DNA of 64,000 nucleotides. Source: Patescibacteria group bacterium (GTDB lineage Bacteria; Patescibacteriota; Minisyncoccia; Ryanbacterales; GWA2-47-10b). The stretch spans positions 8,530 to 72,529 of the forward strand of contig JBBTSE010000002.1 in assembly GCA_038064855.1 (NCBI GenBank), given 5' to 3'. Positions 2,831-21,461 of this stretch are shown piece by piece. The notes under the pieces were generated by a model. That model was not told where the DNA came from. It saw only the letters and a list, made by a program, of their open reading frames with translations, and ran no database searches. Positions within the stretch are counted from its first letter, which is position 1, and each line of letters opens with the position of its first letter. The position numbers were made by a program, and so were the translations under genes.

Positions 2831-2962
2831 ATATCCTATGATTGACGGTTCCTTGACTACCCCGCCACCCATGGCGATCCCCATTCGGGGAGCCATGTGC
2901 TTTGCCTTGTACTGTGTCCCTCAAGCGAATCGCCGAAATTGCCGACGAGAAGGAGAGAGGTA

Positions 2963-3493
2963 ATGGGATCTTTGGCACTCCTCGCGCTACTTGCCTTCAT
3001 CCTCGCTGTCTACACGATCATTCGATATTGGGTTCTTGTGTACGCTCCCTCAGTTAAACATCTCGACTATGAGGATGCGTCGGATCATGTAAGGGACTTG
3101 ATCAAGGATATTGACGCCGCAAAATCCTCCATAACGATTCGTTGCCGTCGGTGTGACGTCGGAAACGCCAGCGCTGACCTTCAGGAGGAGTTTGTTAACG
3201 CAGCGCGACGCGCCGCAAAGAAAGGCGTCAAGAAGATCACCGTAGTTTGCGAGCAATTCCCCGAGTCGGAAGACCACATCATCAACCGGCTCGCTGCCGA
3301 AGGGATCGTCAAGCTAGAACAAGGGAACGTTCTAGTCTATGCGCGAGTTGTTGATGAGCGCACCGTAGTGACTGAGACCAATGCCAATTCTACCAACGCG
3401 CAACAGACGAGAGCTCTTGCGCCAGCTGGTTCCTGGGTCCGCGTTCGCCATGCGAGCAAGGCTCTCTTGGCAGACCTCCAGAAGGCCGCATAG
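2963..3493 (+). CDS. Hypothetical membrane-anchored protein
   Basis: ATG preceded by RBS gaaggagagagg. The N-terminal helix is MGSLALLALLAFILAVYTIIRYWVLVY. Local GC is lower (about 50%). Confidence 0.5.
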   Translation: MGSLALLALLAFILAVYTIIRYWVLVYAPSVKHLDYEDASDHVRDLIKDIDAAKSSITIRCRRCDVGNASADLQEEFVNAARRAAKKGVKKITVVCEQFPESEDHIINRLAAEGIVKLEQGNVLVYARVVDERTVVTETNANSTNAQQTRALAPAGSWVRVRHASKALLADLQKAA

Positions 3494-3560
3494 CGCGTCT
3501 CTGACTTTGGAAGTTCCTTCTGGATCCTGCTAGGTTCTCTGAGAAGGAGACCACCGGGAC

Positions 3561-4355
3561 GTGTCCACTGCTTGCGAAACCCATACGCTCTCTTGGGCGT
3601 ACTATTGTGTTTTCCCCGCGAAAGCAGCGACCGCGAGTGACTGTTTGCTTGGCGTAAATCCCCATCCCGGAATCACCTCAGCTGGATTCATCGATATTCG
3701 CACATGTCCCGATATCGAAACACAGTACTTCCTGCTGATAGCTCTTAGCATTGCGGCACTGAGCTATTTTCAGAGCATCATCAACGCACTCCCCGGCACG
3801 GTTGCAGGCATCGAAGAACGCGACGCTCTAACACCTGTATATACGAGTTTCGCGTTCGTAGGTACTGCGCCTCTTGTGCTGTTCGGGCTTGCGGGGATCT
3901 TTGCTGTCGTACCGTGGTGGTGGCATTTCGTCTGGGGGCTGTGGCTAGTGTTACTGCCCCTCTTTTTTTTGCGGGCGCAGGTTTTTGTGCGACGAGCGGT
4001 AGGGTCGCTTCGTGTCAGAGAGAGCTTGAGTCAGCTGAGAGCGCGACGAATTGCAAATCATGGCAACGCCGCAATTTGCCAAGCGATCGCCCGCCGCGCG
4101 GTCGTTGAGTTTACCTATGACGGGGCAACGCGAATCGTCGAACCTCACGCCCACGGCAGAAGTATCGAGGGAAACGAGGTCATGCGAGGTTTTCAGACAT
4201 CTGACCCAAGTCAGTCGGACGGGTCGATCGCTTGGGGACTCTACGAAGTGTCGAAAATCTCCGGCCTACGGGAGACCGGGGCAACATTTTCCAGTAATCG
4301 CTCCAATTACAATCCGAACGAGGAAGGAATGGGTGTCATCCATTGTCACGTCTAA
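3561..4355 (+). CDS. Hypothetical polytopic membrane protein with possible C-terminal WYL-like beta-barrel domain
   Basis: Several hydrophobic helices are present. The C-terminal segment VEFTYDGATRIVEPHAHGRSIEGNEVMRGFQ...WGLYEVSKISGLRET resembles the WYL pattern. The start codon within the ORF is uncertain. Confidence 0.45.
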   Translation: MSTACETHTLSWAYYCVFPAKAATASDCLLGVNPHPGITSAGFIDIRTCPDIETQYFLLIALSIAALSYFQSIINALPGTVAGIEERDALTPVYTSFAFVGTAPLVLFGLAGIFAVVPWWWHFVWGLWLVLLPLFFLRAQVFVRRAVGSLRVRESLSQLRARRIANHGNAAICQAIARRAVVEFTYDGATRIVEPHAHGRSIEGNEVMRGFQTSDPSQSDGSIAWGLYEVSKISGLRETGATFSSNRSNYNPNEEGMGVIHCHV

Positions 4356-4382
4356 CAGCGACCGCAACGGTCTTCTCTCGCG

Positions 4383-4478
4383 AATAGAATAGAGCCAGCT
4401 CCAAGTGGAGCTGGCTCGTGGCATTTCAGAGCTATCCCGATTCCACGAACGAGAAACGAGATGTAGCGGCCGCTGTTG
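4383..4478. repeat. Direct repeat copy A: hairpin GAGCCAGCTCCAAGTGGAGCTGGCTC plus a frameshifted remnant of the radC 3' end
   Basis: About 75% identical to 17990-18080. Both contain gagccagctcc...ggagctggctcgt...tttcaga.c..tcccg.ttccacgaacgaga...tagcgg. Confidence 0.7.
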
Positions 4479-4977
4479 GTGCCAGGCAACGCCTCCACAG
4501 CTACACGGGCTCCACTACCAGTGGACGCGCAAGGTCCAGGGCAAGACCGTCGCGCTCCGCATCACGCCTGTCGATGATCTCCTGAATCCGGAGGATCGAT
4601 GCACCGAGGGACGAAGCAAGCGGCTCCGAGTCGAACCAATCCCGGGGATCCAGGCGAGCCGGTCGTTCGAGGTGTCGCGATACCACCGCACACGCATAGT
4701 GGGATCACGAGTAACAGCTGCTCGGATGTGCGGTGGGTCGATGACAATAGCGGCGGATCAGACCACTACGTGTGCGGTGCGAGCCATACTCATGCGGTTG
4801 CCGTCGGTCCGGCGAGCGTTGGGGCGATCACCGGAGCCACGTCCTCTGCCGACAGCCGCCCGGAATTCGTGACCATCGCGCTCTGCCGAAAGAACTGACG
4901 GAGGAGTAGAGAGCAGGGTCACAACCCTGCTCTCTACTCCTCGCAGCCGCGAATGGAACAACGTCGGTGAGATCCAG

Positions 4978-7900
4978 CTACAGAACGTCCGTGGCCCTGC
5001 GGACACGTCGAGCGCCCTTTGCAAGTATGCGCGACACGGCCTCTACCCTGGCGCGGGAGTCGCTCGCGGTGGGTGCCCGGTAGTTGACGCGCACTTTGTA
5101 GCCGCGAACGGTCGCTGGTGTACCGGCTTCCGCCTCCTCGGTGTCGAGATGCACTATCAGCCCTTCCGGCGAGCAGACGGTGACGCGGGCTAGGCTCTCT
5201 GACGCAAGCGACGACTGGACTGCTCGTGAAAGGTCACGCAGCGCCGACTTCTCTCGCGCGACGGCGATCACTCGGTCGAAGCCGGCGGCAAGGCACTTCT
5301 GGATGTTCGCAAGCTCATGCTCGGGGTTGGTCGAGATTGAGATCTCGCAGGCGATGCGCTTTCCGTCACGCGAGAGCGCTACGTCGACTCGGCCCGCGCC
5401 ATCGAGGACGTCTTTCTCGATGGTCGCCTTCCAGCCGCGGTCCTCGGCAAGTCGCTTGATGAGGTGTTGGAGGTACTTGTGTTCGGCTCCGCCTCTGCCG
5501 GACGCCGGTGCGGCGGGTGACGTCGTCGCTGCAGGCGGACGTCGCGATGGCGGCGGTGTTGCCCTTGGCGGTAGGCAAGAGGTTGCAGGGACGGGGTGCT
5601 CCGCCACTACTGGCTCCATAGCCGCGATCGGGGTGTCGATCGTCGTTGGCCGCGGCTGCTCAACGTCGGTAGCCGCACGTTTGACTCCGAGCCCCGGCTC
5701 GACCGCTTCTCGCGGCCTCGCGTAGCTCTCGCGCGAAAGCCGGACAATCTCGTCCACCCGGGACCGAGCCTCGGAGGGATCGACCGCCTCGATCGGGAAC
5801 GTTCGCAAGTTGAAGTCCTGGTCACTGCGCTCAAGCCGGCAAATCGCCTCGCCCACGGCGAGGGACTGGAGATCGTTGGCATCGAACGAAGAGAATCCGT
5901 GCGCAAGCAGCCGCGCGTCCTGATCGCCGACGCGAAAGCAGATCCGGGTGGCGGGGTTGGTGAGCACAGCACTCGAAAGCCGTCCGTCCTGGTCTTGGAG
6001 TTGCCGCGTGTCTTGGTGCGCGAGCACCAGACCGAGATGGTACTTGCGAGCTTCGGCAAGGAGAGCGGCTACCGACGGGGTGGCAAAGTTCTGGAACTCG
6101 TCGATATAGAGGTGGAAGTCGGGCCGCTCGCTCTCGGCGAGCTGCTGGCGCGAGAGCGCAGCCTGATGGAATTTGGAGACAAGAAGCGCACCCAAGAGGT
6201 GCGCGTTTTCGTGTCCGATGATGCCCTGCGAGAGCTTGGCGAGGAAGATCTTCCGGCTGTCCATGAGTGACCGGAGGTCGAGCGTGCCTCGGCGCTGACC
6301 GACCATGAGCCGGATGAGCTTCGGGCGCAGGAACGCATCGAGTCGCGTCAAGATCGAGGCCGACGGATTGCCTTTGAGGAGCGGGTACTCCTTTTCGAAG
6401 TAGTAGACGACCTCCGCGTCCCGGACGCTCGCAAGGAACTCCTTCCGGAATGCCGGATCGACGAGGAACTTCCGGAGATCGAGGAGCGACCCGCCGGCGT
6501 CACTCTCGAGGAACGCGAGGATCGCGTTCCCCAAGATGGACGTCATCTGGTCCCCCCAGGATGTCGCGAATCTCCGGAAGATCGCGACGAGATCAGAGGA
6601 CAAAAGGTTCTTCTCGACCTCGGAGTGCGCTTCGAGCACGTTGAACCCGACCGGGTACTCCTCATCGGACGGATCGAGGATCGCAACGTCCGAGAACCGT
6701 TTCTCGGGAATCCGAGCAAGCACTTCGTCGATGAGGTCTCCGTGCGGGTCGAGCACCCCGACGCCGTCGCCGTTCTCGATGTCCTGCAGGATCATCCGGA
6801 GGAGCAGCGTGGATTTTCCGGTCCCTGATGCCCCGACCACGTAGGTGTGGCGCATCCGGAGATCAGGATCGATCGTGACCGTCCTGGTCTTCCCGCGATG
6901 CGTGTTCTCGCCAAGGACAACGCCCTTCCGCGAAGCTCCGGCCGCCGCTCTCGTGGTCCGTGCTTCCCGAGCGAGGCTCTCGGAGCGCACGGACACCGAC
7001 GGAAGGTGGACGAGCGAGACGACTTCATCACTCGAAAGGAGCATGCCTGACCGGTGCGTGCGCCGAGCGAGGAGATCTTCCTCGTGAAGGTCGTCCGGAT
7101 AGTCGTCGTTGGAAAGCGGGATCAGCTCATTGCCGCCGGGGTTCGCAAACTGCCCAAGGCTTCCGCCGAGCGTCCTGACCAATGACCATGCGCGTTCACG
7201 ATCGGGGCAGCGTGCGGCGACACGCACCACAGCAGCGAAGAAAGGATGCGCGATTTTCTCGGCTGCCTGCGATAAAATCTCGGGAGCGTCGGCAAAGAAG
7301 CTATCCCCATCACCATCCGTGACCGCGCGAAGAACGCTCGGCGCCCACGGGTTGCGTGTCGCCTGCGAGAGCACCTGTACGAGACCGACCTCATTGTCGC
7401 GAAGGTCCCCGAGTGCTGCCACCACCGAGATCAGAGGATCGACGTCGAAGTCCTTGGCAATCTTGAGCGGGAGCATGAACTCACGCGACAGCCCGAAGTC
7501 GACCACGAGGCCGTGCCCGTCATCCGCGCAGCTCCAGAGATCGCGAAGCGACTCGGTCGCTGGAACGATGCCCGTCTCGGGGAAGTAGGCACCGAGCGCA
7601 CGCCGGATATCCGCGGAGTCGGACGCACGACACGCGAGCGTGACTCGCACCTCGCCCGATCGGCCAGTTAGCTCGAAGGAGACCGGGTGCTCGACCGGCG
7701 AGAGCGCCAACAGAAACCGCTCGGCGCGCTCCTTGGTGACCTTCAGATCGCCGGGCAGCGTGATCGTGTGCTCGACGATCTCATCACCGAGCCGATCTTC
7801 GAGGGGAAGCGGTTCGTCATCGACCTCGCTTTGGAGGTGCCCGGCCTCGTTCGCCCGAGCGCTCGACCCGCGAAGGCGCTCCACCCAGCGGCTCAAGCGC

Positions 7901-8067
7901 GTGTGCTTGCGTCCATCGTCGCGCTGGCCCTGTCGTGGAGGCAGCGTGTGGCCGAAGAACGGCCGGAACGGAGGCTCGACGACGACCGGCGCATCCCACA
8001 CCTGCCAACCCCGACCGCGGATCTCCCAGCGGTAGAACTCCTGGGTGAGATGCTCCTCGACCGTCAC
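4978..8067 (-). CDS. Giant TraD/TrwB/VirD4-like (FtsK-HerA superfamily) P-loop ATPase with long N-terminal extension and a C-terminal restriction-endonuclease-like domain
   Basis: Walker A YVVGASGTGKSTLLL followed by DPHGDL; Walker B HLYIDEFQNFA; LVLAHQ motif. Pro/Ser-rich linker, then a C-terminal region (HKYLQHLIKRL...GRVDVALSRDGKRIACEISIS...FDRVIAV) with a PD-(D/E)xK-like pattern. It is the last gene of a five-gene operon. Confidence 0.8.
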   Translation of the reverse strand: MTVEEHLTQEFYRWEIRGRGWQVWDAPVVVEPPFRPFFGHTLPPRQGQRDDGRKHTRLSRWVERLRGSSARANEAGHLQSEVDDEPLPLEDRLGDEIVEHTITLPGDLKVTKERAERFLLALSPVEHPVSFELTGRSGEVRVTLACRASDSADIRRALGAYFPETGIVPATESLRDLWSCADDGHGLVVDFGLSREFMLPLKIAKDFDVDPLISVVAALGDLRDNEVGLVQVLSQATRNPWAPSVLRAVTDGDGDSFFADAPEILSQAAEKIAHPFFAAVVRVAARCPDRERAWSLVRTLGGSLGQFANPGGNELIPLSNDDYPDDLHEEDLLARRTHRSGMLLSSDEVVSLVHLPSVSVRSESLAREARTTRAAAGASRKGVVLGENTHRGKTRTVTIDPDLRMRHTYVVGASGTGKSTLLLRMILQDIENGDGVGVLDPHGDLIDEVLARIPEKRFSDVAILDPSDEEYPVGFNVLEAHSEVEKNLLSSDLVAIFRRFATSWGDQMTSILGNAILAFLESDAGGSLLDLRKFLVDPAFRKEFLASVRDAEVVYYFEKEYPLLKGNPSASILTRLDAFLRPKLIRLMVGQRRGTLDLRSLMDSRKIFLAKLSQGIIGHENAHLLGALLVSKFHQAALSRQQLAESERPDFHLYIDEFQNFATPSVAALLAEARKYHLGLVLAHQDTRQLQDQDGRLSSAVLTNPATRICFRVGDQDARLLAHGFSSFDANDLQSLAVGEAICRLERSDQDFNLRTFPIEAVDPSEARSRVDEIVRLSRESYARPREAVEPGLGVKRAATDVEQPRPTTIDTPIAAMEPVVAEHPVPATSCLPPRATPPPSRRPPAATTSPAAPASGRGGAEHKYLQHLIKRLAEDRGWKATIEKDVLDGAGRVDVALSRDGKRIACEISISTNPEHELANIQKCLAAGFDRVIAVAREKSALRDLSRAVQSSLASESLARVTVCSPEGLIVHLDTEEAEAGTPATVRGYKVRVNYRAPTASDSRARVEAVSRILAKGARRVRRATDVL

Positions 8068-8106
8068 GGCGAAGTCGATCTCACAGCGTGCTGGTGATCG
8101 GCAAGG

Positions 8107-8763
8107 CTACTTGTAGAACTCCCGCAAGACGGGCTTGCGTTCGAGCTCGGAGAGCGGCCGGAGACCCTTGGCCTGGGTTAAAGCGTCGATCACTTCCAAG
8201 ACGGCGCCATGCACCGCCTCCTGGAACATGAGCGTGGTGTCGATGCGAAAGTAGGTGAGCGGCCGGAAGAGGCGTTCGAACACCCAGCCGACCACCGGGA
8301 TCACGACGATGTAGACTTCCTTGCCGCTCTCGGAGAGCAGAACACCGACGATTCCCAGGCCGATCACGACAGCCAGAACTGAGACGAGCAGTCCCACGCC
8401 CATGCCGAGCTGAGAGCCGATCAGATTCCAGGCCACCATGAAGCCGATGACGGCTGCTGCGGTGGGCAGAACCGGCGACGGCCGCGGTTCCCCCAACCAC
8501 GTCGAGACGAAGAAGCTGTTGCCGAACGGTGCCGCGCAGATGTCAAAGCTGTGCCTGCCACGCGAAACCCGCAGGTACTCGCGCTTCGCGGACAGCAGAC
8601 CACCCTCTTGCCAGTCGATACGCGAAGGCTTTCCGTCGGGAACCTGACGCTTCTCGATCGCCTTCTCGACCGCGGTGTAGAACTCGAGCGACGAGGTCTC
8701 GAGATTCTCAATGAGCCGATGCCAATGGGAGATGATTGCAGCGGTGGGTATGGATCTCGGCAT
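8107..8763 (-). CDS. Hypothetical membrane protein (operon partner of the ATPase)
   Basis: Two central transmembrane helices (AAVIGFMVAWNLIG..., GLLVSVLAVVIGLGIVGVLL). Six-bp gap to the upstream gene and 40 bp to the ATPase gene. Start could be 8790 or 8763 (GGGGTGA RBS). Confidence 0.55.
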   Translation of the reverse strand: MPRSIPTAAIISHWHRLIENLETSSLEFYTAVEKAIEKRQVPDGKPSRIDWQEGGLLSAKREYLRVSRGRHSFDICAAPFGNSFFVSTWLGEPRPSPVLPTAAAVIGFMVAWNLIGSQLGMGVGLLVSVLAVVIGLGIVGVLLSESGKEVYIVVIPVVGWVFERLFRPLTYFRIDTTLMFQEAVHGAVLEVIDALTQAKGLRPLSELERKPVLREFYK

Positions 8764-8795
8764 GGCTTCACCCCTTGCTCCGGGGGTCACTCACA

Positions 8796-9359
8796 TCAAG
8801 GCTCTTGGTCCTTGTGCCGCGCGACACCCTCGTTGTGGTAGGCGAAGCCGGAGTAGGAGCCGTAGGGCGAGGAAAGCGTTCCAGTCCCGTCGGTGGACTC
8901 GGTTCGCGAATGGTCCTCGGTGAGCATACCGGCGAGAGTCCGGTCACGCCGGTGGTAGTTGGTCAGACCACGACGCTCGATGGTGTACTCGTAGACAAAG
9001 CGGTTGGTTGTGAAGCGAATCACCTTGCCGGCGTGGACCACTGCGTCATCCGTAAACTCGCCGCAATCTTTCGTATCTTGACTACACGGACCGCTCGGTG
9101 TGACGCAGGTCGTGATGGTCAAGCAGTAGCCCGCGATGATTGACTCTACGATCTCTGGCTTGCCGCCATCGCGCTCGACGGTTCTCCTCTTCGTTTTCCA
9201 AACCGAGAACGACATCCCCGTGTCCGCGTCGATGAGCTGGAACATGTTCGCGTTGAAGAACACGGTTCTTGAGGAGAAGCTCGAGGCCAGGGCAGGTGAT
9301 GCGATACCCGTAGCGACCGCTCCAATAAGTACAACTGTCGCTGCGGTCTTGTTCACCAT
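8796..9359 (-). CDS. Secreted hypothetical protein (signal peptide)
   Basis: The N-terminus MVNKTAATVVLIGAVATGIASPALA looks like a Sec signal. The gene is tightly packed in the operon. Confidence 0.55.
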   Translation of the reverse strand: MVNKTAATVVLIGAVATGIASPALASSFSSRTVFFNANMFQLIDADTGMSFSVWKTKRRTVERDGGKPEIVESIIAGYCLTITTCVTPSGPCSQDTKDCGEFTDDAVVHAGKVIRFTTNRFVYEYTIERRGLTNYHRRDRTLAGMLTEDHSRTESTDGTGTLSSPYGSYSGFAYHNEGVARHKDQEP

Positions 9360-9378
9360 ACGAGCGTCCAGCCCAGAG

Positions 9379-12300
9379 TTACGGCACGACGGTCAGCGGG
9401 CCGCTGGCGCAGACTGTCCCCGATGCCGTGCGGTAGTTGCAAACGCGGAGGGTGTACGTCCCCGCGGTCACGATCACGGAACCGCCAACGGTCAACTGGC
9501 CGATCGTACCGACGGGGCGTGTGTTCAGATCGGGTCGCGGTATCGGTGTGCCGTTCACATCCCACTGCAGGCTTAAGGCACCCTGGTTGTCCGAGTCTCC
9601 GAATACGAACCCGCTCCCGTTCACGCGGACATCATAGCCATTGAAGAGATTGCATGTCTGGCCGGCACGGCAGGTACCCGTGATCGATGAGATGACGGGC
9701 GATGGTTGATAGACCGCGAACTGGACGGTGTTGCTCCGCTGGCCGTTGGAGAAACTGGGCACGGGGTTATAGAGCTGGACAAAGTAGGTTCCTGGCCTCT
9801 CCGGGAATCCGACGCCGGAGCCCTCACCGAACGAATCGACATGGTAGGTCGCGAGTGTGCTGCTCGCAGGTGTTGCTCGAAGGCTCCCAAGCCCTGGCGG
9901 ATCAGAAGCACCCCACAAGAGATACAGGATCCCGGTACTGAAGTTCTGACCCGTGAATGAAAGATCGACAGCCCCCGTATTGAGCGTCACAGATGAAGGC
10001 GTGAAGTTATTGATTGCTGGCACGGGGAGCGCGGCGGTCGGTGTCGGTGAAGGGGTCGCTGTTGGGCTTGGAGTGATGCAGGCGAATTTCTGGATCCGAT
10101 CGATATCTGCGACATAGACATTGCTGGCAGAGTCAACGGCCACGCCGGTCGGTCCCCTGAACTCACCGCCGCCAGAGCCAGACATCCCCCATTGACCGAT
10201 GAATGTGCCGCTCTGGCTGAACTTCTGGATGCGACGGTTGGTAGTGTCGGCGACGTACACGTTACCACCATCGATCCGTACATCCTCCGGCCCCATGAGT
10301 TCGCCGACACCACTGCCCCCAGGTCCTCCCCACTTCGTGAGAAAAAATCCACCTGAACTAAATTTCTGGATGCGATTGTTCCCCGTATCGGCAACGTACA
10401 GGTTGCCTGTTGCATCCACCGCTACGGCGCGTGGTTGCAACAGCTCGCCGTCGAGACTTCCGACAGTCCCGATCTTCCCCACGAAGCCGCCGTTACCATC
10501 AAATATTTGGATTCTATGATTGTTTCGATCAGCTACATAGACCTTACCGCTAGTATCGAGAGCGACACCCGTGGGCTGATCGAATTGCCCATCGCCGGTA
10601 CCCCGCGTACCCCATACGAGCACGAATGTACCGGCAGTCGTGAACTTGTGAATGCGGTGATTCAGCCTATCGGTGACATACACATGCGTGCCATCAGTAG
10701 CGACGCCCGAAGGCGTGTCGAACTGTCCGTCACCCGCGCCGTAGCTTCCCCAACTACCAAGAAAGACCCCGTCGCTCGTGAATTTCTGTACGCGAAAGTT
10801 CTCCCTCTCGGTGACATACACGTTGTCGGCGGCGTCAACGGCGAGATGGTAGGCGCCGTTGAGCTGCCCATCCCCAGAACCAAGAGTTCCCCACTTGGTC
10901 ACAAATGTGTACTGGCACCCAGCGGTCGCTGTTGGGGTCGGCGTCGGAGAAGGAGGAGGTGTCGTGTAGAAGACCCGTGCCTGCACATAGTCCGCACGGC
11001 AGGTGTTGGTAGGCGTCGTGCCACGAGCCCAGCACCACATCCGTACGCGGAAGTTCAAGTCCGAAATCTCTCCCGGCGACCAGCTTCGTCCCCAGGTGTC
11101 GGTTGACCCACCGATCGTCCAGGTGCCACGACCACCAGAGAGACCACTCCCTCGGCAGTTGGGCGTCCCAGGTGTGGTGCTCACACATTCGCCGCCGCCT
11201 TCCGGATCAGGATTCACCATGTAAGCCGGAATGAACGAGCTACCGCCGTCGTACGACAGATCAGTGAAGATGTCGTCGAAGTAGTTACCTACGCCTACGT
11301 GTCCTTCAATCTGAACCTCGATACCGGTGACGGTTGCATCAGAGGGGAGTGAGAAGCCGAATCCGCCTACTTGGTGAGTTGGCCGCACGCTGCCAACCTT
11401 CATGCCGACTGCATCGAGATCATCGTCGGCGAAGAGGTTCTGGCCGTCGACCCAACCACCCGTCTGACTGCCGCCCAAGAGAAAACCCGTGTCAGTTGAG
11501 ACCGGGCTTGGCGTGTTTGTTGGAACTGGCGTTGGGCTGGGACTGGCGAGAGCGGGAGGTAGGCACACAAGGACGATGGTGTCCGTATCCTTCTGGCCAT
11601 CAATCCCAACCGTGCGGAGCTTGAAGGCCCGCGATGCTTTCTTGGGACCGTTCCGGCTCGACTTCAAGCGTACCCGAAGATCGACATCGCTCGTGTAGAG
11701 TGAGCCGATGAAGGGCAGGGCACCAACACCTGCAAGAGCATCGAGGAGCCCCATCCGGTTCATGGCGTCGTCCGCGTTCTTCTCCGAATCCTTCTCGCTT
11801 GGTTTCAAGAGTTCGTAGGACGCGATGCCCGGAGACACGCATGCGGGTAGCCGTAGGTCCTGGTGGTTGAAGATCAGCCGCGTGTTGAAGGTGCAGGCGC
11901 CATCAGCCGCGCCATCGAGATCGCACGCGGCACCGTCAGTGCAGGGCTGCTTCGACTTTGGCACACACTTGCGTGAGTCGAGTAGTAGCTCACCCGCAAG
12001 AGAAAACTCGCCGAAGCAGTCGGTCTTGGCAGAGCCGCCGCCCATCACGAGTGACTTGTCAGAGGCAGAACCGCACGAAAGGAGTCCTTTCAAGACATCA
12101 ATGTCGCCCTTGTCGATGACGCCGTTGCCGTTCAAGTCTCGCGGATCTTCGGGGTTTGCAGGGCGGCCGAGGGCGTCGCGGATGATTTTCTCATCTTTCG
12201 CATCAATACGGGTATCATCGGTCAAGTCACCACGGAACCGCGGCAGGCCGACTTCCAGCCGAATAATTCGTTGAGTACCACCCGGGAGATATACGAGGAG

Positions 12301-12897
12301 GCTGGCGACCCCGTAATCAATACCTGTAATTACAAACCGGGTCTTGCCTTGGCTTTCCTCACGTCGCACTGTGGCAACGCTCGGGTGAGCGGTCTCGATG
12401 AGGCTTTCCTGTAGGCCAGTTACATCAATGTCGACACCTTCGACGTAGGCATGAAGGGAAAGACTCTCTTCCTCGGCTGGGCGGACCGCCATCAGCTCCG
12501 GCACCTCAATTGCAGACCCATAGTCGAAATCGGGAAGCACTAATATCTCGACGCTATCGCGTAACACCGTCGTGCCAACTCGTCCGGCAATCCTCAGTGT
12601 AACGGGCCCGACGACGTCTGCAGGTAGCGGGAGCTGGATCATTCCGGAACCACCTGAGGCCCGGCCCGCCCCGCCGGGTACCGTCGCGACTAGCCCATCG
12701 AAGGTCACCCCGTGCGTATCTACCAGCACACTCACAATGTCGCCCCGCTGGAATTGCTCGCCAGGTGCGGGGCTAGTGATTTCGAGCATTGGGTCAGCCG
12801 CGGCTCGCCCAATCACGAGGAGCAAGACCGCAACCGTAACCACGACGATCGCAGTCGCTAGTAATGCCAACCGATTCATATACCAGGACATTATCAT
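9379..12897 (-). CDS. Large cell-surface protein with NHL-repeat beta-propeller, dockerin-like motif, Pro/Thr linkers and Ig-like C-terminal domains
   Basis: There is an N-terminal transmembrane/signal segment. Six NHL-type blades are visible (NFRVQKF, NHRIHKF, NHRIQIF, NNRIQKF, NRRIQKF, IDRIQKF). DLNGNGVIDKGDIDVL is dockerin-like. [21 protein letters not shown] are linkers. Confidence 0.75.
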   Translation of the reverse strand: MIMSWYMNRLALLATAIVVVTVAVLLLVIGRAAADPMLEITSPAPGEQFQRGDIVSVLVDTHGVTFDGLVATVPGGAGRASGGSGMIQLPLPADVVGPVTLRIAGRVGTTVLRDSVEILVLPDFDYGSAIEVPELMAVRPAEEESLSLHAYVEGVDIDVTGLQESLIETAHPSVATVRREESQGKTRFVITGIDYGVASLLVYLPGGTQRIIRLEVGLPRFRGDLTDDTRIDAKDEKIIRDALGRPANPEDPRDLNGNGVIDKGDIDVLKGLLSCGSASDKSLVMGGGSAKTDCFGEFSLAGELLLDSRKCVPKSKQPCTDGAACDLDGAADGACTFNTRLIFNHQDLRLPACVSPGIASYELLKPSEKDSEKNADDAMNRMGLLDALAGVGALPFIGSLYTSDVDLRVRLKSSRNGPKKASRAFKLRTVGIDGQKDTDTIVLVCLPPALASPSPTPVPTNTPSPVSTDTGFLLGGSQTGGWVDGQNLFADDDLDAVGMKVGSVRPTHQVGGFGFSLPSDATVTGIEVQIEGHVGVGNYFDDIFTDLSYDGGSSFIPAYMVNPDPEGGGECVSTTPGTPNCRGSGLSGGRGTWTIGGSTDTWGRSWSPGEISDLNFRVRMWCWARGTTPTNTCRADYVQARVFYTTPPPSPTPTPTATAGCQYTFVTKWGTLGSGDGQLNGAYHLAVDAADNVYVTERENFRVQKFTSDGVFLGSWGSYGAGDGQFDTPSGVATDGTHVYVTDRLNHRIHKFTTAGTFVLVWGTRGTGDGQFDQPTGVALDTSGKVYVADRNNHRIQIFDGNGGFVGKIGTVGSLDGELLQPRAVAVDATGNLYVADTGNNRIQKFSSGGFFLTKWGGPGGSGVGELMGPEDVRIDGGNVYVADTTNRRIQKFSQSGTFIGQWGMSGSGGGEFRGPTGVAVDSASNVYVADIDRIQKFACITPSPTATPSPTPTAALPVPAINNFTPSSVTLNTGAVDLSFTGQNFSTGILYLLWGASDPPGLGSLRATPASSTLATYHVDSFGEGSGVGFPERPGTYFVQLYNPVPSFSNGQRSNTVQFAVYQPSPVISSITGTCRAGQTCNLFNGYDVRVNGSGFVFGDSDNQGALSLQWDVNGTPIPRPDLNTRPVGTIGQLTVGGSVIVTAGTYTLRVCNYRTASGTVCASGPLTVVP

Positions 12898-12923
12898 GTT
12901 AATATTCTAGCACGATACTTTGC

Positions 12924-15900
12924 CTAGGGTTGTGGACTACTCGGGGGCACTCTAACAAACTGATCGACTACACCATCGAGCAAGTTAGCGATCTCGGCCG
13001 GAAGTTGCGGTCGCGAAAGGATTGATCGTGATGGAAATGGGGCATCCGGTATCCCGCAGTAGCCGACGGTGCCAGAGTAAACCTCCTGGATATCTCGCTG
13101 GAGTCTAAGATATCTCGCCAAAACAGTCGCGTCTGTGTGCAGATAGGGGCCGACTCCGGTCACCTGAGAGCCGGCTTGTGATAGCGTCTGACTCTGAATC
13201 GGCGACACGAGGTCCGTCAGGACCGCGGGGGAGCCCAAGAGCTGCGCCCCACCACTCGGCGGGCTCCATGCCACCGTACAGAAGGGCGGGGTCACAGGGA
13301 GATCCTGCAAATAGTCGGCGAGATGACAGAGGGCAGCATCCAGGCTGTTGGCATCATCCGCTGACGATGATGCAGAAACAAAATGCGTAGGTATCGAACC
13401 CGGCCGTGAGTTAAGCGTACGGAGGGCATCATTGGATGGGCAATCCGAAACCGGGCAGAGGTTCGCGACAGCTCCGTGGTGAGCCTGCCGAAGGTAGTTA
13501 CGCAGATCGTCATCGTCGTCAGAGAACCGAAGAACCGTGTCAACGATGCCGGCGACATCCGTCGAATACTCGAAGGGACAGGATACTATTGCGGACGCGA
13601 AGTCGAGGCCGACGGTGGCCCAGCGTGTGCCCTCGTGCGGTGTGTCGATGCTGACGAGCCTACGAACATCGCCCGCGAGAAAGTTCGACGGTCGCCTATA
13701 GAGGCCTCCAAGATGTTGATTTAATGCTTCAACACAGTCCTGAAAAAGGCCTGGAACCGGTTGGCAGAGTGGAAGAGTCCGAGTAGCCAGGGCACCCATA
13801 CTGTGTGCGACGACGTCGAGTTGGATCGCGACCGCATCGTTGTCGACTCCGAATCGATTGAGGCAGCCTCGAAGATCGCGAGCGATCTCGCCGGCGACAG
13901 TGGCGAAGGACGCGAATTGACTACCGGTGTAATCAGCTACGCAGTAGTAGTGCTTGTGAGGAGGCCGAATCGCAGGGGGAAAAGTCAGGTGAACGCTCGA
14001 ATCTGGGGGCGAGGCGGAGTTCAGGAATGACCGCCAAGTGTTTCTGCTGCCGCCGAAGCCATGCACGAGAAGAACAGGCGGCCGTAGAAGTCGCACGACT
14101 CGTTCAGGTGAGCTGCAAGGTTGATGAGGTGAAGACGGTGGATCTGGAGTAAACTGAATTGTATAGGGATAGGAACGGTCTCGAGTGGTGTCGTCCCCAA
14201 AATGATCGGGACTCTTGACGATGAAGTAGCCCAGGTGGCGAGTGACCGAGGCAGCGTTCTTTACTTCGGTCGTGCGTACCGATTGGCTGCAGGGATTTTG
14301 TGAAACAGCGCCCGCAAGGGTGTGGATGGATGGATTAAGGGAATTGGCAGGACAGTCGATTGAGAAGGTGATATCGCCCGGTTGCTGGGTCTCAAAAACA
14401 AAAAGGAGACGAGATACTCCGTCGCTGGCAAGCGCAGTTGGGTGCCATGCATAGTACGGAAGTCTAGAGGTAATTGAGGAGATATCTGAATTGACGAGTC
14501 CGGCGGAAGTCGCAAAGGATGAAGCGTCGTAGGTTATTACTTGCACAGAGTTGCAGGTAGATGTGGACGGTGAGCAACGGGGATCTAGGTCGTCGATAAA
14601 GTCGTTGCAGTCGTCGTCAGCGCCATTGGTGCAGGTGGGGTCACCCACGGGACCTTCAATGCCCGGTGGTGCGGGATAGTAACGGCAGGAATCGCCGACG
14701 CAGCGGTCGAGCGTGCATCCGTCCGCATCCTCGCAGTCGCCATTCAGCGCGCAGTCAGCAGAACCACCAATGCAGGCACAGGATGCGTTGCAGGTTTGGC
14801 CGGTTGAGCAATCGGACGGGGAGCCGTCACATTCTTCGTTGCAGCCGGCCTGGATGACATCGTCGCCGCAGTGAGGACCGCCCGCGCACACGCCGGCGGT
14901 GCAGCGGTCGTTGATCGTGCACGGGTCGGGGTCGGTGCAGCTGGTGTTGTTGGGGCGGGACTGTCTTTGGCAAGCGTGTGTAATGAGATTACAGACACCC
15001 GTGTTGCAGTCGTTGGCTAAGCTGGTGCACTGGGTATCGCTGGTGCAGCCGAGTATTTCGCACGCACCGCAGTCGCTTGCGCGGCACGTCTGGCCGCCGG
15101 CACAGCTTGACGGCAATCCGGTGTCACAGGCCTCCGTACCACAGACCCTTCCGTCGCCACACGAGACGGGACGGGGCTGTTGGACACATTGGTCGTTCGA
15201 TTCATTGCAGACACCCGTGTTGCATAGATCAGTCTGAGCGCTGCAATCTCTGGCCGTTCCGCCGACGCAGGTGCCGGCACCGTTGCACGCGTCGTTGATC
15301 GTACAGAACTGTGTATCGTCGCATGAGACGGTGTTGTTCGCTGTGACGCATTGCGCAGTGCTCGGGTTACAGGAGTCATTCGTGCAGGAGTTACCATCGT
15401 TGCAGCTCGTATGGCCGGGATCACTGCACGAACAACCGGCCGAATCGACAACCTGACCAGAGGAAGTCCCCGGACACGAGTCGCTCGCATCCGGAACACT
15501 GTCGCCATCGGCATCCGGAGGTACCCCACCTTGGCAGGTGCATGAAGCGGTGCAGGTCTGGCCGGCCGAGCAGCCGACTGGTGATCCATCACACTGCTCG
15601 CTACCTTCCTTGGTGTTGTTCCCGCAGGTTGTGATTAGCCAGTGTCCGTTGGTGCTCCAACCGGTCCCAGGGGACCCGGAGAGTTGCCACCAGAGGTTCT
15701 GCCCGATGTTCGTTCCCGCGTCGGCGCAGGTCGGTCCGCCGACAACGGTCATCTGTGTACCCGACGGCATCGTCGCCACGAGTGTTCCGGTGACACCTGC
15801 CGGATTGCGCAACCGTAAGTTGTGGCCATCGGCTGTGACGCTTACTGTGATCCCGATCGAGGGAAATGGTGTGAGCCATTCGGCGACCGCACTCCAGCCC

Positions 15901-16205
15901 TCGCGGTTCTGGTCGTCGCGCACCTGCCACCACCGAAAACCATCTGGCGTTACCGTGACGCCGTCACCGATTACCTGGAGGAAGTCGAGTGGTGGGTTTG
16001 TCCCGATCTCTGAGGAGGCAACCCCGGGCCCGTTCCTGAGTTTCAGGCCCGTCCCGCAGGTGTTGACGATCTGGACCTGCTGTCCGACCGAGATGGCAAG
16101 TGCCGGTGTCGCGTGAGCGAGAACCACTGCCGAAAGGAGAATGCTGGCTCCGCGGCACGCTCTCCGTGCCCACAGTCTGGACCAAGTCGCAGGCGTCTCC
16201 GCCAT
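12924..16205 (-). CDS. Secreted multidomain protein: tandem SH3b-like modules, Myxococcus-type cysteine-rich repeats, C-terminal alpha/beta-hydrolase (lipase-like)
   Basis: RBS GGAGGGGAG precedes ATG (MAETPATW...). Signal sequence with RR (WARRACRGASILLSAVVLAHATPALA). Repeats such as CGDGRVCGTEACD...C, and later PVLLVHGFGGSRN plus VVAHSMGALA (GxSxG). The alternative upstream start at 16286 is less likely. Confidence 0.7.
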   Translation of the reverse strand: MAETPATWSRLWARRACRGASILLSAVVLAHATPALAISVGQQVQIVNTCGTGLKLRNGPGVASSEIGTNPPLDFLQVIGDGVTVTPDGFRWWQVRDDQNREGWSAVAEWLTPFPSIGITVSVTADGHNLRLRNPAGVTGTLVATMPSGTQMTVVGGPTCADAGTNIGQNLWWQLSGSPGTGWSTNGHWLITTCGNNTKEGSEQCDGSPVGCSAGQTCTASCTCQGGVPPDADGDSVPDASDSCPGTSSGQVVDSAGCSCSDPGHTSCNDGNSCTNDSCNPSTAQCVTANNTVSCDDTQFCTINDACNGAGTCVGGTARDCSAQTDLCNTGVCNESNDQCVQQPRPVSCGDGRVCGTEACDTGLPSSCAGGQTCRASDCGACEILGCTSDTQCTSLANDCNTGVCNLITHACQRQSRPNNTSCTDPDPCTINDRCTAGVCAGGPHCGDDVIQAGCNEECDGSPSDCSTGQTCNASCACIGGSADCALNGDCEDADGCTLDRCVGDSCRYYPAPPGIEGPVGDPTCTNGADDDCNDFIDDLDPRCSPSTSTCNSVQVITYDASSFATSAGLVNSDISSITSRLPYYAWHPTALASDGVSRLLFVFETQQPGDITFSIDCPANSLNPSIHTLAGAVSQNPCSQSVRTTEVKNAASVTRHLGYFIVKSPDHFGDDTTRDRSYPYTIQFTPDPPSSPHQPCSSPERVVRLLRPPVLLVHGFGGSRNTWRSFLNSASPPDSSVHLTFPPAIRPPHKHYYCVADYTGSQFASFATVAGEIARDLRGCLNRFGVDNDAVAIQLDVVAHSMGALATRTLPLCQPVPGLFQDCVEALNQHLGGLYRRPSNFLAGDVRRLVSIDTPHEGTRWATVGLDFASAIVSCPFEYSTDVAGIVDTVLRFSDDDDDLRNYLRQAHHGAVANLCPVSDCPSNDALRTLNSRPGSIPTHFVSASSSADDANSLDAALCHLADYLQDLPVTPPFCTVAWSPPSGGAQLLGSPAVLTDLVSPIQSQTLSQAGSQVTGVGPYLHTDATVLARYLRLQRDIQEVYSGTVGYCGIPDAPFPSRSILSRPQLPAEIANLLDGVVDQFVRVPPSSPQP

Positions 16206-16314
16206 CTCCCCTCCGTCAGGTTGTCCCCGGTGCCGAGCACCAAGAGCTAGACCGGCCGGAACGCAAAAGTCAACCAGTACCGTCACCTACACCAAATGGT
16301 GTATCTCGCTCGGG

Positions 16315-17538
16315 GTGGCGGAACCGAAAGACGAACGGTCAGCCAGGCGGCGCTCTCATGCGCCGCACCCTCGCGATCTTCACCTGACCGATCTGGTCGG
16401 TCAGATCTACGAGGCCGTGGGAACCAGCGATGGCTGGGGTGTCTTCTTGGGCGGCCTTGCCGGAAGGATGCGCAGCGTAGCCCCGGCCCTCAACCTGACC
16501 GGCAAGGAACGTGACGCCGGTACGCTCTGGATCGCCCCTGGTCAGGACGACGAAGAGACGCGGCGCGTCTACGACACCTACTACCTCGCCCGTGATCCGA
16601 GGCGCCCCAAAATCCAGGAGACACCTGCCGGCGGAACCTTCATCGGCAACAGGGTCTTCCTCGATCGCGAGCTTGTCCGAAGCGAGTTTTTCAACGACTT
16701 CCTCCGGCCCCGAGACTTCTTCCACATCATGGGAGGAGTTCCCATCAAAGAGCCCGAACGGATGGCGGTGATCCGCCTCATTCGGCCGAGGAAGGCGCCA
16801 CCTTTCGGGAATCAAGAGCTTCGGCTCCTCAGAGTCGTCATGCCGCACCTCACCCGAGCCCTCCACCTCCACTGCGAGATTGCTCGCGTCGCGGACGCGC
16901 GAGACAGCGCTCACGAGGTGCTCGACCGGTTTCGGACGGGAGTCATCCTGCTCGATCGTGAGGGCAAGGTCATCACCGCAAACCTCCAGGCCCGTGCGAT
17001 CCTCGATCGCAGCGATGGTCTGTTGGTGAAGGACGCCACTCTCACTGCGGAGAGCACCGCTGCGAGAAGCGAGCTTGCCTCGACGGTCGCAGGGGTGCAG
17101 GCGCCCGACGGCAACGAGTCTGCGTCGCTTCGCATCCCGCGCTCCTCGGGGAAGAGACCGCTCGGGCTCCTCATCGCGCGGCTTCGAGGCAGACTTCTCG
17201 GCGACATCTCGAATCGAGCAGCGGTCGTTGTCTTCGTGAGCGATCCCGACGAGCAACGAGTGGCGCCGATCGACTTCGTCCGGCAGTCGCTCGGTCTCAC
17301 CAAGGCCCAGGCTCGTCTCGTTGTTTCGCTCGCTGCCGGCGGACGCCTGAAGGACATCGCCGAGAAGCTCGGCATCACCTATGCGACTGCACGCAGGGAG
17401 CTCTTCGACGCGTTCAAGAGAACCGGGGTGCACCGGCAGAAAGATCTGATCGGGCTCGTGGTATCGAGCGTCGGCTCGGTCATGCAACATGCGGACCTCG
17501 AGGTCGTCGGTGGTAGCGGCCATCGCCGATCTTCGTGA
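16315..17538 (+). CDS. LuxR-family transcriptional regulator (C-terminal GerE/LuxR HTH)
   Basis: C-terminal LTKAQARLVVSLAAGGRLKDIAEKLGITYATARRELFDAFKRTGVHRQKDLIGLV. The N-terminal DLVGQIYEAVGTSDGWGVFLGGLA is typical of large LuxR regulators. The start (GTG 16315) is uncertain; the gene is divergent from the 16205 operon. Confidence 0.65.
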   Translation: MAEPKDERSARRRSHAPHPRDLHLTDLVGQIYEAVGTSDGWGVFLGGLAGRMRSVAPALNLTGKERDAGTLWIAPGQDDEETRRVYDTYYLARDPRRPKIQETPAGGTFIGNRVFLDRELVRSEFFNDFLRPRDFFHIMGGVPIKEPERMAVIRLIRPRKAPPFGNQELRLLRVVMPHLTRALHLHCEIARVADARDSAHEVLDRFRTGVILLDREGKVITANLQARAILDRSDGLLVKDATLTAESTAARSELASTVAGVQAPDGNESASLRIPRSSGKRPLGLLIARLRGRLLGDISNRAAVVVFVSDPDEQRVAPIDFVRQSLGLTKAQARLVVSLAAGGRLKDIAEKLGITYATARRELFDAFKRTGVHRQKDLIGLVVSSVGSVMQHADLEVVGGSGHRRSS

Positions 17539-17989: not shown

Positions 17990-18080
17990 GAAAAGAAAAG
18001 AGCCAGCTCCCTTTGGAAGCTGGCTCGTATCGTTTCAGAACCTTCCCGTGTCCACGAACGAGACATAGCGGTCATCGCCG
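17990..18080. repeat. Direct repeat copy B (hairpin GAGCCAGCTCCCTTTGGAAGCTGGCTC + intact radC 3' end)
   Basis: Matches 4383-4478. Here the radC reading frame is intact through the repeat. Confidence 0.7.
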
Positions 18081-18469
18081 ATCACGACATGGTCGAGAAT
18101 GCGGATGCCGAGGAGGTCTCCGGCCTCTTTGAGGCGGCGGGTGAGCGCAACGTCCTCGGCGGACGGCTCGGGATCTCCCGACGGGTGATTGTGAACGAGG
18201 ATGAGGGTGGCAGCATTCGCGATGATCGCCGCCTTGAACACCTCGCGCGGATGGACGAGCGACGCGGTCAGCGACCCGACCGACACCGTGTTGAAGCCCA
18301 TCACGCGACCCTTGCCGTCGAGGAGCACGGCGATGAACTCCTCGCGGTCGAGCTTCAGGAAGCGGTCACGGAAGGTGCGGAAGATCTGCTCGGAGCCGGC
18401 AACCGGCGAGCCGGCCAGACCGTAGCCGCCTCGCCGCTCTCGGACGACCTTGAGCTCCCACATGGTCAA
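18035..18469 (-). CDS. radC: RadC-like JAB/MPN domain protein
   Basis: HNHPSGDPEPSAEDVALTRRL (JAMM HxHPSG...S..D motif) and C-terminal DDRYVSFVDTGRF. Confidence 0.85.
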   Translation of the reverse strand: MTMWELKVVRERRGGYGLAGSPVAGSEQIFRTFRDRFLKLDREEFIAVLLDGKGRVMGFNTVSVGSLTASLVHPREVFKAAIIANAATLILVHNHPSGDPEPSAEDVALTRRLKEAGDLLGIRILDHVVIGDDRYVSFVDTGRF

Positions 18470-18846
18470 TCCTCCCCGGGGAGCATGATCGTGGCGACCG
18501 GTTCGCCTTCATCGCCAGGTCCGACATGGAGGATCATCTCCACAACCTCGGCGTCGATGAGGACCGAGAACGAGACAGAGCTGTCGTCGGGCCGTTTGCG
18601 GGCGGCGAGTGAGGACATCCACAGAACGTCGTGGGCTCTGCCGCGGGTGTCCTCGTGACTGTCCGCGGGCGCTTGGACGAGAGCCCAGACGGCGGCCGTC
18701 ATGGCGACCGGAATCCGGAATCCACCCATCATCTCGCGGGTGCTTGCCCACTCGGTCATGTCGACGAGCACGCCATCCTCGATCGCCTGACCGCGCGTGT
18801 AGCGGTGGACGACATCGGCGTCCGAAAAGAACTTTTCCATGGTCAC
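18466..18846 (-). CDS. Hypothetical protein (translationally coupled upstream of radC)
   Basis: ATGA overlap with the radC start. No recognisable motif. Confidence 0.5.
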   Translation of the reverse strand: MTMEKFFSDADVVHRYTRGQAIEDGVLVDMTEWASTREMMGGFRIPVAMTAAVWALVQAPADSHEDTRGRAHDVLWMSSLAARKRPDDSSVSFSVLIDAEVVEMILHVGPGDEGEPVATIMLPGED

Positions 18847-21212: not shown

Positions 21213-21461
21213 TCAGGAAAGGAGCGAGAGACGCCTGAGGTCGTCCTCCGTCCAGCGGGCTTGGAGTTCGATCATGCTCCGGAGAGTCTTTGGCGGGAAA
21301 GTGTCGCCAGAGTGGTGGAAGGTCACGGTGACGCGGCGCCCGTCAGCATGCGTGTAGTGGCGGTGGCTGCCGCGCTGGCGATCGAGAGTGAACCCGTCGG
21401 CGAGAAGAGCTCGAACGAGTTCGCGGGCTGTGAGGGAGCGGAGTCGGCTGTAGTCGATCAT
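21213..21461 (-). CDS. hicA: HicA-family mRNA interferase toxin
   Basis: RELVRALLADGFTLDRQRGSHRHYTHADGRRVTVTFHHSGDTFPPKTLRSMIEL matches the YcfA/HicA GSH...H motif pattern. Confidence 0.8.
   Translation of the reverse strand: MIDYSRLRSLTARELVRALLADGFTLDRQRGSHRHYTHADGRRVTVTFHHSGDTFPPKTLRSMIELQARWTEDDLRRLSLLS

Follow-up and report, generated by a model that had tools for sequence, protein, structure and literature searches.

Do five tightly spaced genes that bring together giant exported proteins and a TraD/TrwB-like ATPase form a single system? The question is raised by a 64,000-nucleotide (nt) stretch of DNA from a Patescibacteria group bacterium (GenBank assembly GCA_038064855.1, contig JBBTSE010000002.1, positions 8,530 to 72,529), which will be hereafter referred to as the window. 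A first reading of this DNA, the original prediction, had described the five genes as one system and had offered three options for it: a minimal DNA-transfer module, an export system for the giant proteins, or a defence module. Here, we find that the region belongs to an island of a recurrent integrative-element family that is spread across many phyla. In this family, the conserved pair consists only of a membrane protein and the long ATPase, whose genes often overlap translationally, and a serine recombinase usually accompanies them. The three genes for secreted or surface proteins, together with a LuxR-like regulator, fill a cargo slot. Our reading, to which we give a probability of roughly 0.55, is that cargo has been put next to a core that handles transfer or processing of DNA in an integrative element of mobilizable or conjugative type. 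Among the three options, the minimal DNA-transfer module fits best, given a backbone that has a serine recombinase, RadC and a second ATPase resembling type IV coupling proteins (T4CPs).

The five open reading frames (ORFs) lie on the minus strand between positions 16205 and 4978, and the regulator is transcribed divergently from them. In the direction of transcription, the genes for the SH3b protein, the NHL protein, the small secreted protein, the membrane protein and the long ATPase are separated by 26, 19, 32 and 39 nt, so the tight spacing first proposed (6-40 bp) is borne out. An intergenic region of 109 nt separates the regulator from the SH3b gene. That the genes are real is shown by exact copies in assemblies made independently from replicate samples and by the more than 3000 full-length homologues of the ATPase. 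Gene calls made separately on identical contigs from a Hainich groundwater metagenome (ENA ERZ1292627 and ERZ1292643, and Logan runs) agree with ours. A scan for promoters and terminators gave counts equal to the shuffled expectation, and it is therefore uninformative on co-transcription.

Conservation of the gene order was examined in 80 genome loci from many phyla, over 10 kb on either side of the ATPase, by tblastn and by all-against-all clustering of ORFs that were called with a simple longest-ORF heuristic. The membrane gene is found immediately upstream of the long ATPase, on the same strand, in 40 of the 48 loci with a full-length ATPase, and the median distance of -5 nt in these loci means that the two genes overlap. 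By tblastn, the membrane protein was detected in 52 of the 80 loci and in all nine extra loci. No homologue of the NHL protein, the SH3b protein, the small secreted protein or the regulator was found by tblastn or clustering in any of the 80 loci. Synteny thus keeps only the membrane protein with the ATPase, and the proposal that the five genes make up one system is not upheld. For annotation, the lesson is that tight same-strand spacing is no proof of one system. A serine recombinase lies downstream of the ATPase in 25 of 46 loci, and in 19 of the 46 it is within 600 nt and on the same strand. By tblastn, recombinase homologues follow the ATPase in 38 loci, and about half of the loci have no recombinase within 10 kb. 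In locus L091, a further relative, the gap between the two genes is 10 nt.

The closest relatives have a backbone in common with the window, but their cargo differs. In L091, the interval between RadC and the membrane gene is occupied by a type I restriction-modification (R-M) operon, and in L094 and L096, with ATPases 80% and 73% identical to that of the window, by small genes of unknown function. In L095 (80%), the nearest relative, segment 4871-8973 of the locus carries a LuxR/GerE-type regulator divergent from a 964-amino-acid TIG/TSP3/propeller surface protein that is unrelated to the window's, and here the regulator has been kept and its target surface protein swapped. There is also a second slot, downstream of the ATPase, which holds patatin and E2/E1/JAB genes in L094, SIR2_2 in L095 and four small ORFs in the window. 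The recurrent backbone can be described as a short T4CP-like ATPase without a transmembrane (TM) segment, DUF6573, RadC, the cargo slot, the 2-TM membrane protein, the long ATPase, sometimes the second slot, and the serine recombinase. A MOBC relaxase, a DnaG-type primase and ArdC join this backbone in some lineages. Several loci from Verrucomicrobia and other groups show the short ATPase, Replic_Relax (PF13814), a CHC2/Toprim primase, a 95-amino-acid protein, RadC, ArdC, a large membrane protein, the membrane protein, the long ATPase and the recombinase; the MOBC relaxase in the relatives adjoins the short paralogue, not the long ATPase. Fragments of comM (Mg-chelatase) flank the element in L005, L007, L017, L020, L026, L095 and L096, and truncated comM is its likely integration target.

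The long ATPase (4978..8067, minus strand) has 1029 amino acids and, according to hydropathy, no TM segment. It comprises an N-domain, a motor, a proline-rich linker and a nuclease-like domain. Residues 1-95 are conserved and poorly modelled. The N-domain proper, residues 97-355 (nt 7003-7779, minus strand), is a predicted VirB4-type N-terminal domain that precedes the motor; in precomputed annotations residues 1-382 correspond to Pfam DUF8128, and the top 13 Foldseek matches of the N-domain model are all TrwK chains. The T4CP-like P-loop motor spans residues 383-790 (nt 5698-6921, minus strand), with the Walker A motif GASGTGKST at 412-420 and the Walker B residues D656 and E657, both motifs being invariant in the homologues. 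The original prediction of a TraD/TrwB-like ATPase of the FtsK/HerA superfamily agrees with the hidden Markov model (HMM) search, in which the motor matched TrwB_AAD_bind (PF10412, 1.8e-10, residues 396-719), T4SS-DNA_transf (PF02534, 1.8e-7) and TraG-D_C (PF12696, 4e-5). In the PDB, the TrwB structure 1e9r was matched by sequence (5.5e-6), and profile searches gave TrwB (4e-6) and DotL (0.025), with DptH and HerA marginal.

Residues 848-1029 (nt 4981-5526, minus strand), after the linker, form a PD-(D/E)xK nuclease-like domain. Structure prediction with AlphaFold2 (AF2) gave an alpha-beta-beta-beta-alpha-beta core at a predicted local distance difference test (pLDDT) score of 88.6, and the predicted PD-(D/E)xK fold, which had also been suspected from the sequence, is assigned with confidence. 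Residues E884, D895 (on β2), E908 (on β3) and K924 are invariant. The domain has no Pfam or PDB sequence match, even at E <= 10. As a profile, it retrieves 2700 representatives at 50% identity among 1.84 billion proteins, and among the 150 matches listed all but two end within a few residues of the protein C-terminus. The possibility that this domain is a fused MOBC relaxase was rejected, as hhalign gave a probability of 1.2% against the MOBC alignment of the relatives and PF13814 was not matched. The original description of the arrangement as being without relaxase or VirB4 needs correction on both counts, since the N-domain of the long ATPase is predicted to be VirB4-like and relatives hold a MOBC relaxase beside the short paralogue.

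Within the extreme N-terminus, residues 1-56 are among the most conserved of the protein and are modelled as disordered (pLDDT < 50); W14, E15, R19, G20, W21, E31, P32, F34, P36, F37 and D50-D51 are invariant. This segment is likely a peptide at which a partner, for instance the 2-TM protein, docks.

The membrane protein (8107..8763, minus strand, 218 amino acids) has two neighbouring TM helices (residues 98-116 and 125-143) that form a hairpin, as expected for the membrane protein first proposed as the fourth gene. It has no Pfam family, VirB3 included. As the conserved partner of the long ATPase, it takes the position that virB3 has relative to virB4. Upstream of the pair in the verrucomicrobial loci L029, L032, L040, L047 and L054, at 2-16 nt, a protein of about 800 amino acids is encoded, with 5-6 N-terminal TM helices, a large soluble domain and no Pfam family. 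This polytopic protein is a possible VirB6-like channel component of the element family.

More than 3000 full-length homologues of about 1030 amino acids were found at 50% identity or more (over 3000 clusters at 90% identity) in Acidobacteriota, Verrucomicrobiota, Planctomycetota, Binatia, Gemmatimonadota, Bacteroidota and the candidate phyla radiation (CPR). The closest, at 75-80%, include proteins from metagenome-assembled genomes (MAGs) of Binatia. No full-length homologue occurs on 72,556 plasmid and 50,697 phage records, where only the motor is matched, at 23-36% identity. An annotated match on a Sulfitobacter plasmid is a short ATPase near a recombinase and insertion sequence (IS) elements and is uninformative. 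More distant chromosomal relatives in CPR bacteria (about 30% identity, about 785-840 amino acids) cover the N-domain and the motor (residues ~96-790), have no nuclease tail and are set among housekeeping genes, not islands; a 2-TM partner is present in one of 25 such loci. For Patescibacteria, each CPR genome has been reported to encode about two homologues of T4CPs, most of them distant from virB4 and with a role that is not known (PMC12102498). The distant relatives are plausibly these orphan VirD4-like T4CP homologues, which differ from the long ATPase by having neither nuclease tail nor 2-TM partner. Members of the family are annotated only as 'T4SS DNA-binding domain protein' or as hypothetical, and no paper in the literature searched mentions DUF8128 or describes this ATPase architecture. 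The architecture and the element family are thus apparently undescribed, and the explanation as cargo in an island is an ordinary one.

When compared with known systems, the island can be set beside the integrative mobilizable elements (IMEs). PF13814 corresponds to the MOBC relaxases, and an IME class has been described that combines a VirD4-type coupling protein with MOBC and a serine integrase (PMC5357655). Like the streptococcal IME_Class_8 (PMC5357655), it is a chromosomal island with a large serine recombinase, a T4CP-like ATPase, variable cargo, tandem accretion with other elements and no mating-pore genes, and in the relatives a Replic_Relax/MOBC gene directly follows the short ATPase. 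Unlike that class, it has a second, long ATPase with VirB4-like N-domain, nuclease tail and 2-TM partner; both ATPases are without an N-terminal TM domain, the window copy has no detectable relaxase, and most hosts are uncultured members of Acidobacteriota, Verrucomicrobiota, Binatia, Planctomycetota, the CPR and other groups. The pair recalls VirB3-VirB4 (TrwM-TrwK of R388; PDB 7o42, 8rtb) in that a small membrane gene lies directly upstream of, and often overlaps, the gene of a large two-part ATPase with a homologous motor. However, it matches neither the VirB4 nor the VirB3 profile, in sequence its motor is closer to TrwB and DotL, and no VirB6, VirB8 or VirB10 is nearby. A C-terminal PD-(D/E)xK domain is, to our knowledge, not a feature of VirB4. 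The T4CPs TrwB, TraD and VirD4 have the same P-loop motor, with matches to TrwB_AAD_bind, T4SS-DNA_transf and TraG-D_C, and the same mobile-element setting, but the long ATPase lacks an N-terminal TM domain, has an extra N-domain of about 380 amino acids and a nuclease domain of about 180, and scores far under the cut-offs of all NCBIfam TraD/VirD4 models. Because at least one defining feature of the T4CPs, of VirB4 and of the MADS defence system alike failed when tested, the long ATPase is a member of neither the T4CPs, VirB4 nor MADS; it sits among integrative elements and ATPases of the VirB4/VirD4 superfamily.

Taken as part of such an element, the genes could work as follows. The serine recombinase would excise the element, and the long ATPase, combining a VirB4-like N-domain, a T4CP-like hexameric DNA motor and a PD-(D/E)xK nuclease, would then process and pump the element DNA, with the nuclease domain providing nicking or cleavage. 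Since the ATPase has no TM segment, the 2-TM partner may tether it at the membrane, as VirB3 does VirB4. The coupling-protein role may fall to the short paralogue, together with MOBC in the lineages that have it. Since the element encodes no channel across the envelope, transfer would use either a resident type IV secretion system (T4SS), which is the simplest case (mobilization), or another route; CPR bacteria almost always carry a chromosomal T4SS (PMC12102498). The cargo cassette would be a Sec-exported, LuxR-regulated surface and hydrolase module, of use to the host or to the element. Its tight same-strand insertion would probably give read-through into the pair, with no mechanistic tie to the ATPase. 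If the ATPase does drive transfer, it would represent a compact conjugation or mobilization module for phyla with almost no characterised conjugative systems, and would explain how R-M systems, SIR2 and patatin defence genes and giant surface proteins move between phyla. An integrase at the element end and a compositional boundary are both found for the island, in the form of serine recombinases and a break in guanine plus cytosine (GC) content at 22.9 kb, and relatives have truncated comM.

Several observations weigh against this reading. Everything said here about function is drawn from homology, predicted structures and the context of the genes. Backbone genes beyond the pair are found within 10 kb in only 6-10 of 38 loci, although frequencies of the distant ones are underestimates because only 10 kb per side was seen. 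The window's island, of at least 31 kb, contains no relaxase, primase or ArdC detectable by tblastn with the relatives' proteins or by Pfam, no relaxase or mating-pair formation (MPF) family was detected in it, and VirB6, VirB8 or other channel genes were not found in the window. The N-domain model has a mean pLDDT of 66.9, with residues 97-355 mostly at 70-90, so it is of moderate confidence, and sequence profiles of VirB4 and VirB3 do not match: TIGR00929 (VirB4_CagE) reaches 16.8 bits where the cut-off is 643, and PF03135 gives no match. In the nuclease-like domain, the canonical lysine two residues past E908 is replaced by serine (E-I-S), for which the invariant K924 and N921 on the next helix might substitute. 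Finally, combinations of a HerA/FtsK-type ATPase with a nuclease are known also in defence, and the best PADLOC match of the long ATPase is mad8 (2.2e-23).

That last point leads to the view, which we consider improbable, that the pair is a defence or exclusion module, a membrane-tethered ATPase-nuclease of the HerA/FtsK superfamily that recognises and degrades incoming DNA of phages or of competing plasmids or integrative and conjugative elements (ICEs), with mobile elements carrying the pair as protection. Mad8 is a HerA/DptH-like ATPase, and its profile is the strongest match obtained; weak matches to HerA_antiphage, DndH and DptH point the same way, the fusion of motor and nuclease is typical of such systems, and both slots are rich in defence genes in the relatives (type I and IIG R-M, SIR2, patatin with E2/E1/JAB). 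The long ATPase indeed shares with the HerA/DptH ATPases (MADS Mad8, DptFGH, HerA-nuclease pairs) a HerA/FtsK-superfamily motor tied to a nuclease. However, the short paralogue, which lies near a MOBC relaxase in relatives, also matches mad8 (1.2e-17), so the match is generic to the motor, and the seven other MADS genes are missing. Membership in MADS was rejected for this reason, as only the generic ATPase profile of the eight-gene operon (methyltransferase, specificity subunit, kinase, DptG-like protein) is matched. The partner genes of the HerA/DptH systems are absent as well, the N-domain is of another kind, resembling VirB4 and not the HerA HAS-barrel, and the pair is an invariant backbone component of the element, not a variable island gene, in a fixed position, often co-oriented with the integrase at 10-93 nt, while the defence genes around it vary. 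An FtsK-like translocase-nuclease that is co-transcribed with the recombinase and serves it, governing the direction of excision and integration, multimer resolution or segregation of the circle with no export of DNA, much as FtsK activates XerCD, is likewise improbable. It has in its favour the tight co-oriented adjacency (19 of 46 loci within 600 nt, 10 nt in L091), the lack of channel genes and the fact that membrane protein, ATPase and recombinase are the most conserved trio, the transfer genes being patchy. Yet the ATPase stays intact both in the window and in its closest relatives even though the recombinase there is either inverted, at a distance of 3 kb, or degraded, about half of the loci have no recombinase within 10 kb, and paralogy to a relaxase-linked T4CP-like ATPase favours transfer. 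Known directionality factors of serine integrases are, moreover, small proteins.

The single system of the original prediction, in which the ATPase would power the export, assembly or use of giant surface proteins (adhesins or envelope-breaching enzymes) of a contact-dependent, LuxR-controlled apparatus, seems to us very unlikely. The same strand, the gaps of 19-39 nt and the lack of any terminator-like site within them speak for it, and in L095 the same layout recurs, from a homologous regulator through a giant surface protein and the membrane protein to the ATPase. Moreover, a 987-amino-acid protein with PGAP1-lipase, immunoglobulin-like (Ig) and FG-GAP domains lies upstream of the pair in L037, the verrucomicrobial polytopic proteins of about 800 amino acids lie 2-16 nt upstream of it, and a large protein is the upstream neighbour of the pair in 18 of 44 loci, against a background of 12%. 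These 18 loci are not independent, however: they represent about ten protein families, and several of the large neighbours are R-M enzymes. Homologues of the three proteins stand beside the pair in none of the 80 loci and in none of the nearest relatives, and relatives at 73-80% identity carry only small unrelated genes there. The giant proteins, in addition, bear signals or anchors of the Sec type; all three exported proteins do, and an exporter of the T4CP kind is therefore unneeded. A bolder form of the transfer reading is also rather unlikely in our view. It would make the 2-TM protein, the long ATPase and the recombinase the core of an undescribed, self-sufficient minimal DNA-transfer system, with a VirB4-type energiser and a relaxase-like nickase in one polypeptide, that mobilises a very large element family in at least ten phyla and has recently reached a Patescibacteria genome from a donor of high GC content (Binatia-like).

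The element as a whole is an island of high GC content, at least 31 kb long, that contains the six-gene region and lies inside a Patescibacteria contig with a GC content of 0.48. Within the window, positions 1-22.9 kb have a GC content of about 0.62, compared with about 0.48 in the other 41 kb. The right boundary (22880..22930, no strand) is sharp, with GC falling from about 0.6 to 0.35 at ~22,905. On its low-GC side there is a host UPF0102 gene followed by tRNA-Pro(TGG) at 23661-23732, and this side codes for RNase Y, iPGM, H+-PPase, a PilB-type ATPase and Ig-domain surface proteins. The junction between island and host is contained in contigs of two replicate samples, and a one-off chimera is therefore unlikely. 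The window ATPase is 75-80% identical to proteins of Binatia MAGs, and a CPR bacterium seems to have acquired the island recently from another phylum. An island of 0.62 GC with its nearest relatives in Binatia, in a contig of 0.48, bears on gene flow into episymbiotic CPR bacteria. The family also has a GC-adapted member in a Saccharibacteria MAG, at locus L031 (GC 0.33).

To the left, the same contig stays high in GC beyond the window start, where the rest of the serine recombinase is followed by genes for a CBM96 protein, a ribbon-helix-helix (RHH) protein and an M78 peptidase. The length given for the island is a lower bound. A second large serine recombinase, of 501 amino acids, is found about 7-8.5 kb left of the window start, together with the M78-peptidase/RHH pair, the CBM96 protein and genes of unknown function; it is contained in positions 1-9736 of L084, equivalent on the scale of the window to about -7843 to 1892. 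The arrangement suggests that a second element lies in tandem with the ATPase-bearing one or is nested in it. Both ENA contigs start in or near the gene of the second recombinase, and the breaking of two assemblies near island ends is only suggestive of mobility. At the right boundary in the window, neither a comM remnant nor a partial tRNA was found, and T-loop-like strings near 22,760-22,830 score nothing with Rfam. A 10-nt palindrome, TTCACGTGAA (inside TTTCACGTGAAA), occurs four times in 630 bp (23021-23651) and nowhere else in the 64 kb, where 0.1 copies are expected. Its copies fall within or near the host UPF0102 gene, in the interval from the island boundary to tRNA-Pro, and an apparent insertion in the UPF0102 ORF contains two of them. 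The repeats may be a binding array for a regulator or a recombinase, or a miniature repeat.

The cargo genes are as follows. The SH3b/Cys-rich/hydrolase protein (12924..16205, minus strand) has 1093 amino acids. Its SH3b assignment (SH3_3, 5e-8) and its secretion stand as first proposed, but the lipase-like part is weak, with a sub-threshold Abhydrolase_6 match (E 0.0057) and the readable motifs LLVHGFGGS and VVAHSMGAL (GxSxG-type); a PDB sequence search with this region returned nothing meaningful. Similarity of this protein to L095 is limited to a Cys-rich stretch of 53 amino acids. The NHL β-propeller surface protein (9379..12897, minus strand, 1172 amino acids) has five NHL repeats (Pfam NHL, 2.6e-43) and an N-terminal TM anchor, and it has no homologue in any related locus, among the 80 or the extra ones. 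The NHL half of its former description as NHL/dockerin-like is thus secure; the dockerin half has no HMM support, only the motif DLNGNGVIDKGDID being readable. The small secreted protein (8796..9359, minus strand, 187 amino acids) belongs to no Pfam family. It has the N-terminal hydrophobic, signal-like segment expected of a secreted protein, and its one match in the extra loci covers 46 amino acids (E 1.3e-5) in L094, ~5 kb upstream of the membrane gene there. The signal or anchor segments of the SH3b, NHL and small proteins were recognised by simple hydropathy.

The regulator (16315..17538, plus strand, 407 amino acids), which has a C-terminal helix-turn-helix (HTH) domain of putative LuxR/GerE-like type, is divergent from the cargo genes, as proposed. 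Its assignment to the LuxR type is weak in the window protein itself, which gives weak matches to HTH_23 and Sigma70_r4_2, an NCBIfam match to BagY/FevT (4e-4) and none to PF00196; the L095 regulator, which occupies the same position there and is 49% identical over 428 aligned residues, has a weak GerE match. The regulator probably serves the cargo cassette.

Other genes of the island surround this region. The large serine recombinase (1..1892, plus strand; Pfam Resolvase 1.6e-18, Recombinase 2.9e-19, HTH_31, HTH_3) is the integrase of the element. Its gene begins ~75 nt left of the window and the full protein, of 655 amino acids with C-terminal HTH domains, is encoded by a complete gene in L001 and L084. 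In the window, it is convergent with the long ATPase. Between the two there are four small co-oriented ORFs (2157..4898, plus strand, opposite to the ATPase) of 224, 176-198, 264 and 99 amino acids, to which no function is assigned. They have no Pfam or PADLOC family, apart from a marginal AbiEii match of the 264-amino-acid protein in PADLOC, and no homologue in the 80 loci. This stretch is the second variable slot, and it is a candidate novel defence cassette, as relatives have patatin with E2/E1/JAB or SIR2 at this position. At the element edge in L091, a defence-like ATPase of 620 amino acids (15251-17113 of the locus; AAA_15/AAA_21/AAA_23, OLD/SMC-like) follows the recombinase.

On the other side of the cargo, RadC (18035-18463, minus strand, Pfam RadC 8.8e-44) and DUF6573 (18466-18840, minus strand, Pfam DUF6573 9e-30), for which a joint feature span of 18035..18846 was given, have the same order in L094 and L096. 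They are backbone genes that are usual in the establishment regions of conjugative elements. The short TrwB-like ATPase (19239..20423, minus strand, 394 amino acids, Pfam TrwB_AAD_bind 9e-10), without a TM segment, is a paralogue of the motor of the long ATPase, with 36% identity (BLASTP 6e-66). The right end of the island carries accessory genes, namely the toxin-antitoxin pair HicA (21213-21461, minus strand) and HicB (21458-21694, minus strand), both from precomputed Pfam annotation, and a NUDIX hydrolase (21910-22458, minus strand; Pfam NUDIX 7.6e-12, PADLOC PDC-S07 6e-13).

On the host side of the boundary, the ORFs 23989-25353 and 58965-61397, both on the plus strand, contain the Cys-rich MopE 'putative metal-binding' motif. 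The first of them has a local GC content of 0.61-0.64, with a strongly negative GC skew at 24.7-25.15 kb. It is followed at 25597-27861 by a surface protein of 754 amino acids with He_PIG, Big_9 and cadherin-like domains. From these Cys-rich and Ig-type surface proteins on the host side, it follows that giant proteins of such a kind are native to the host too.

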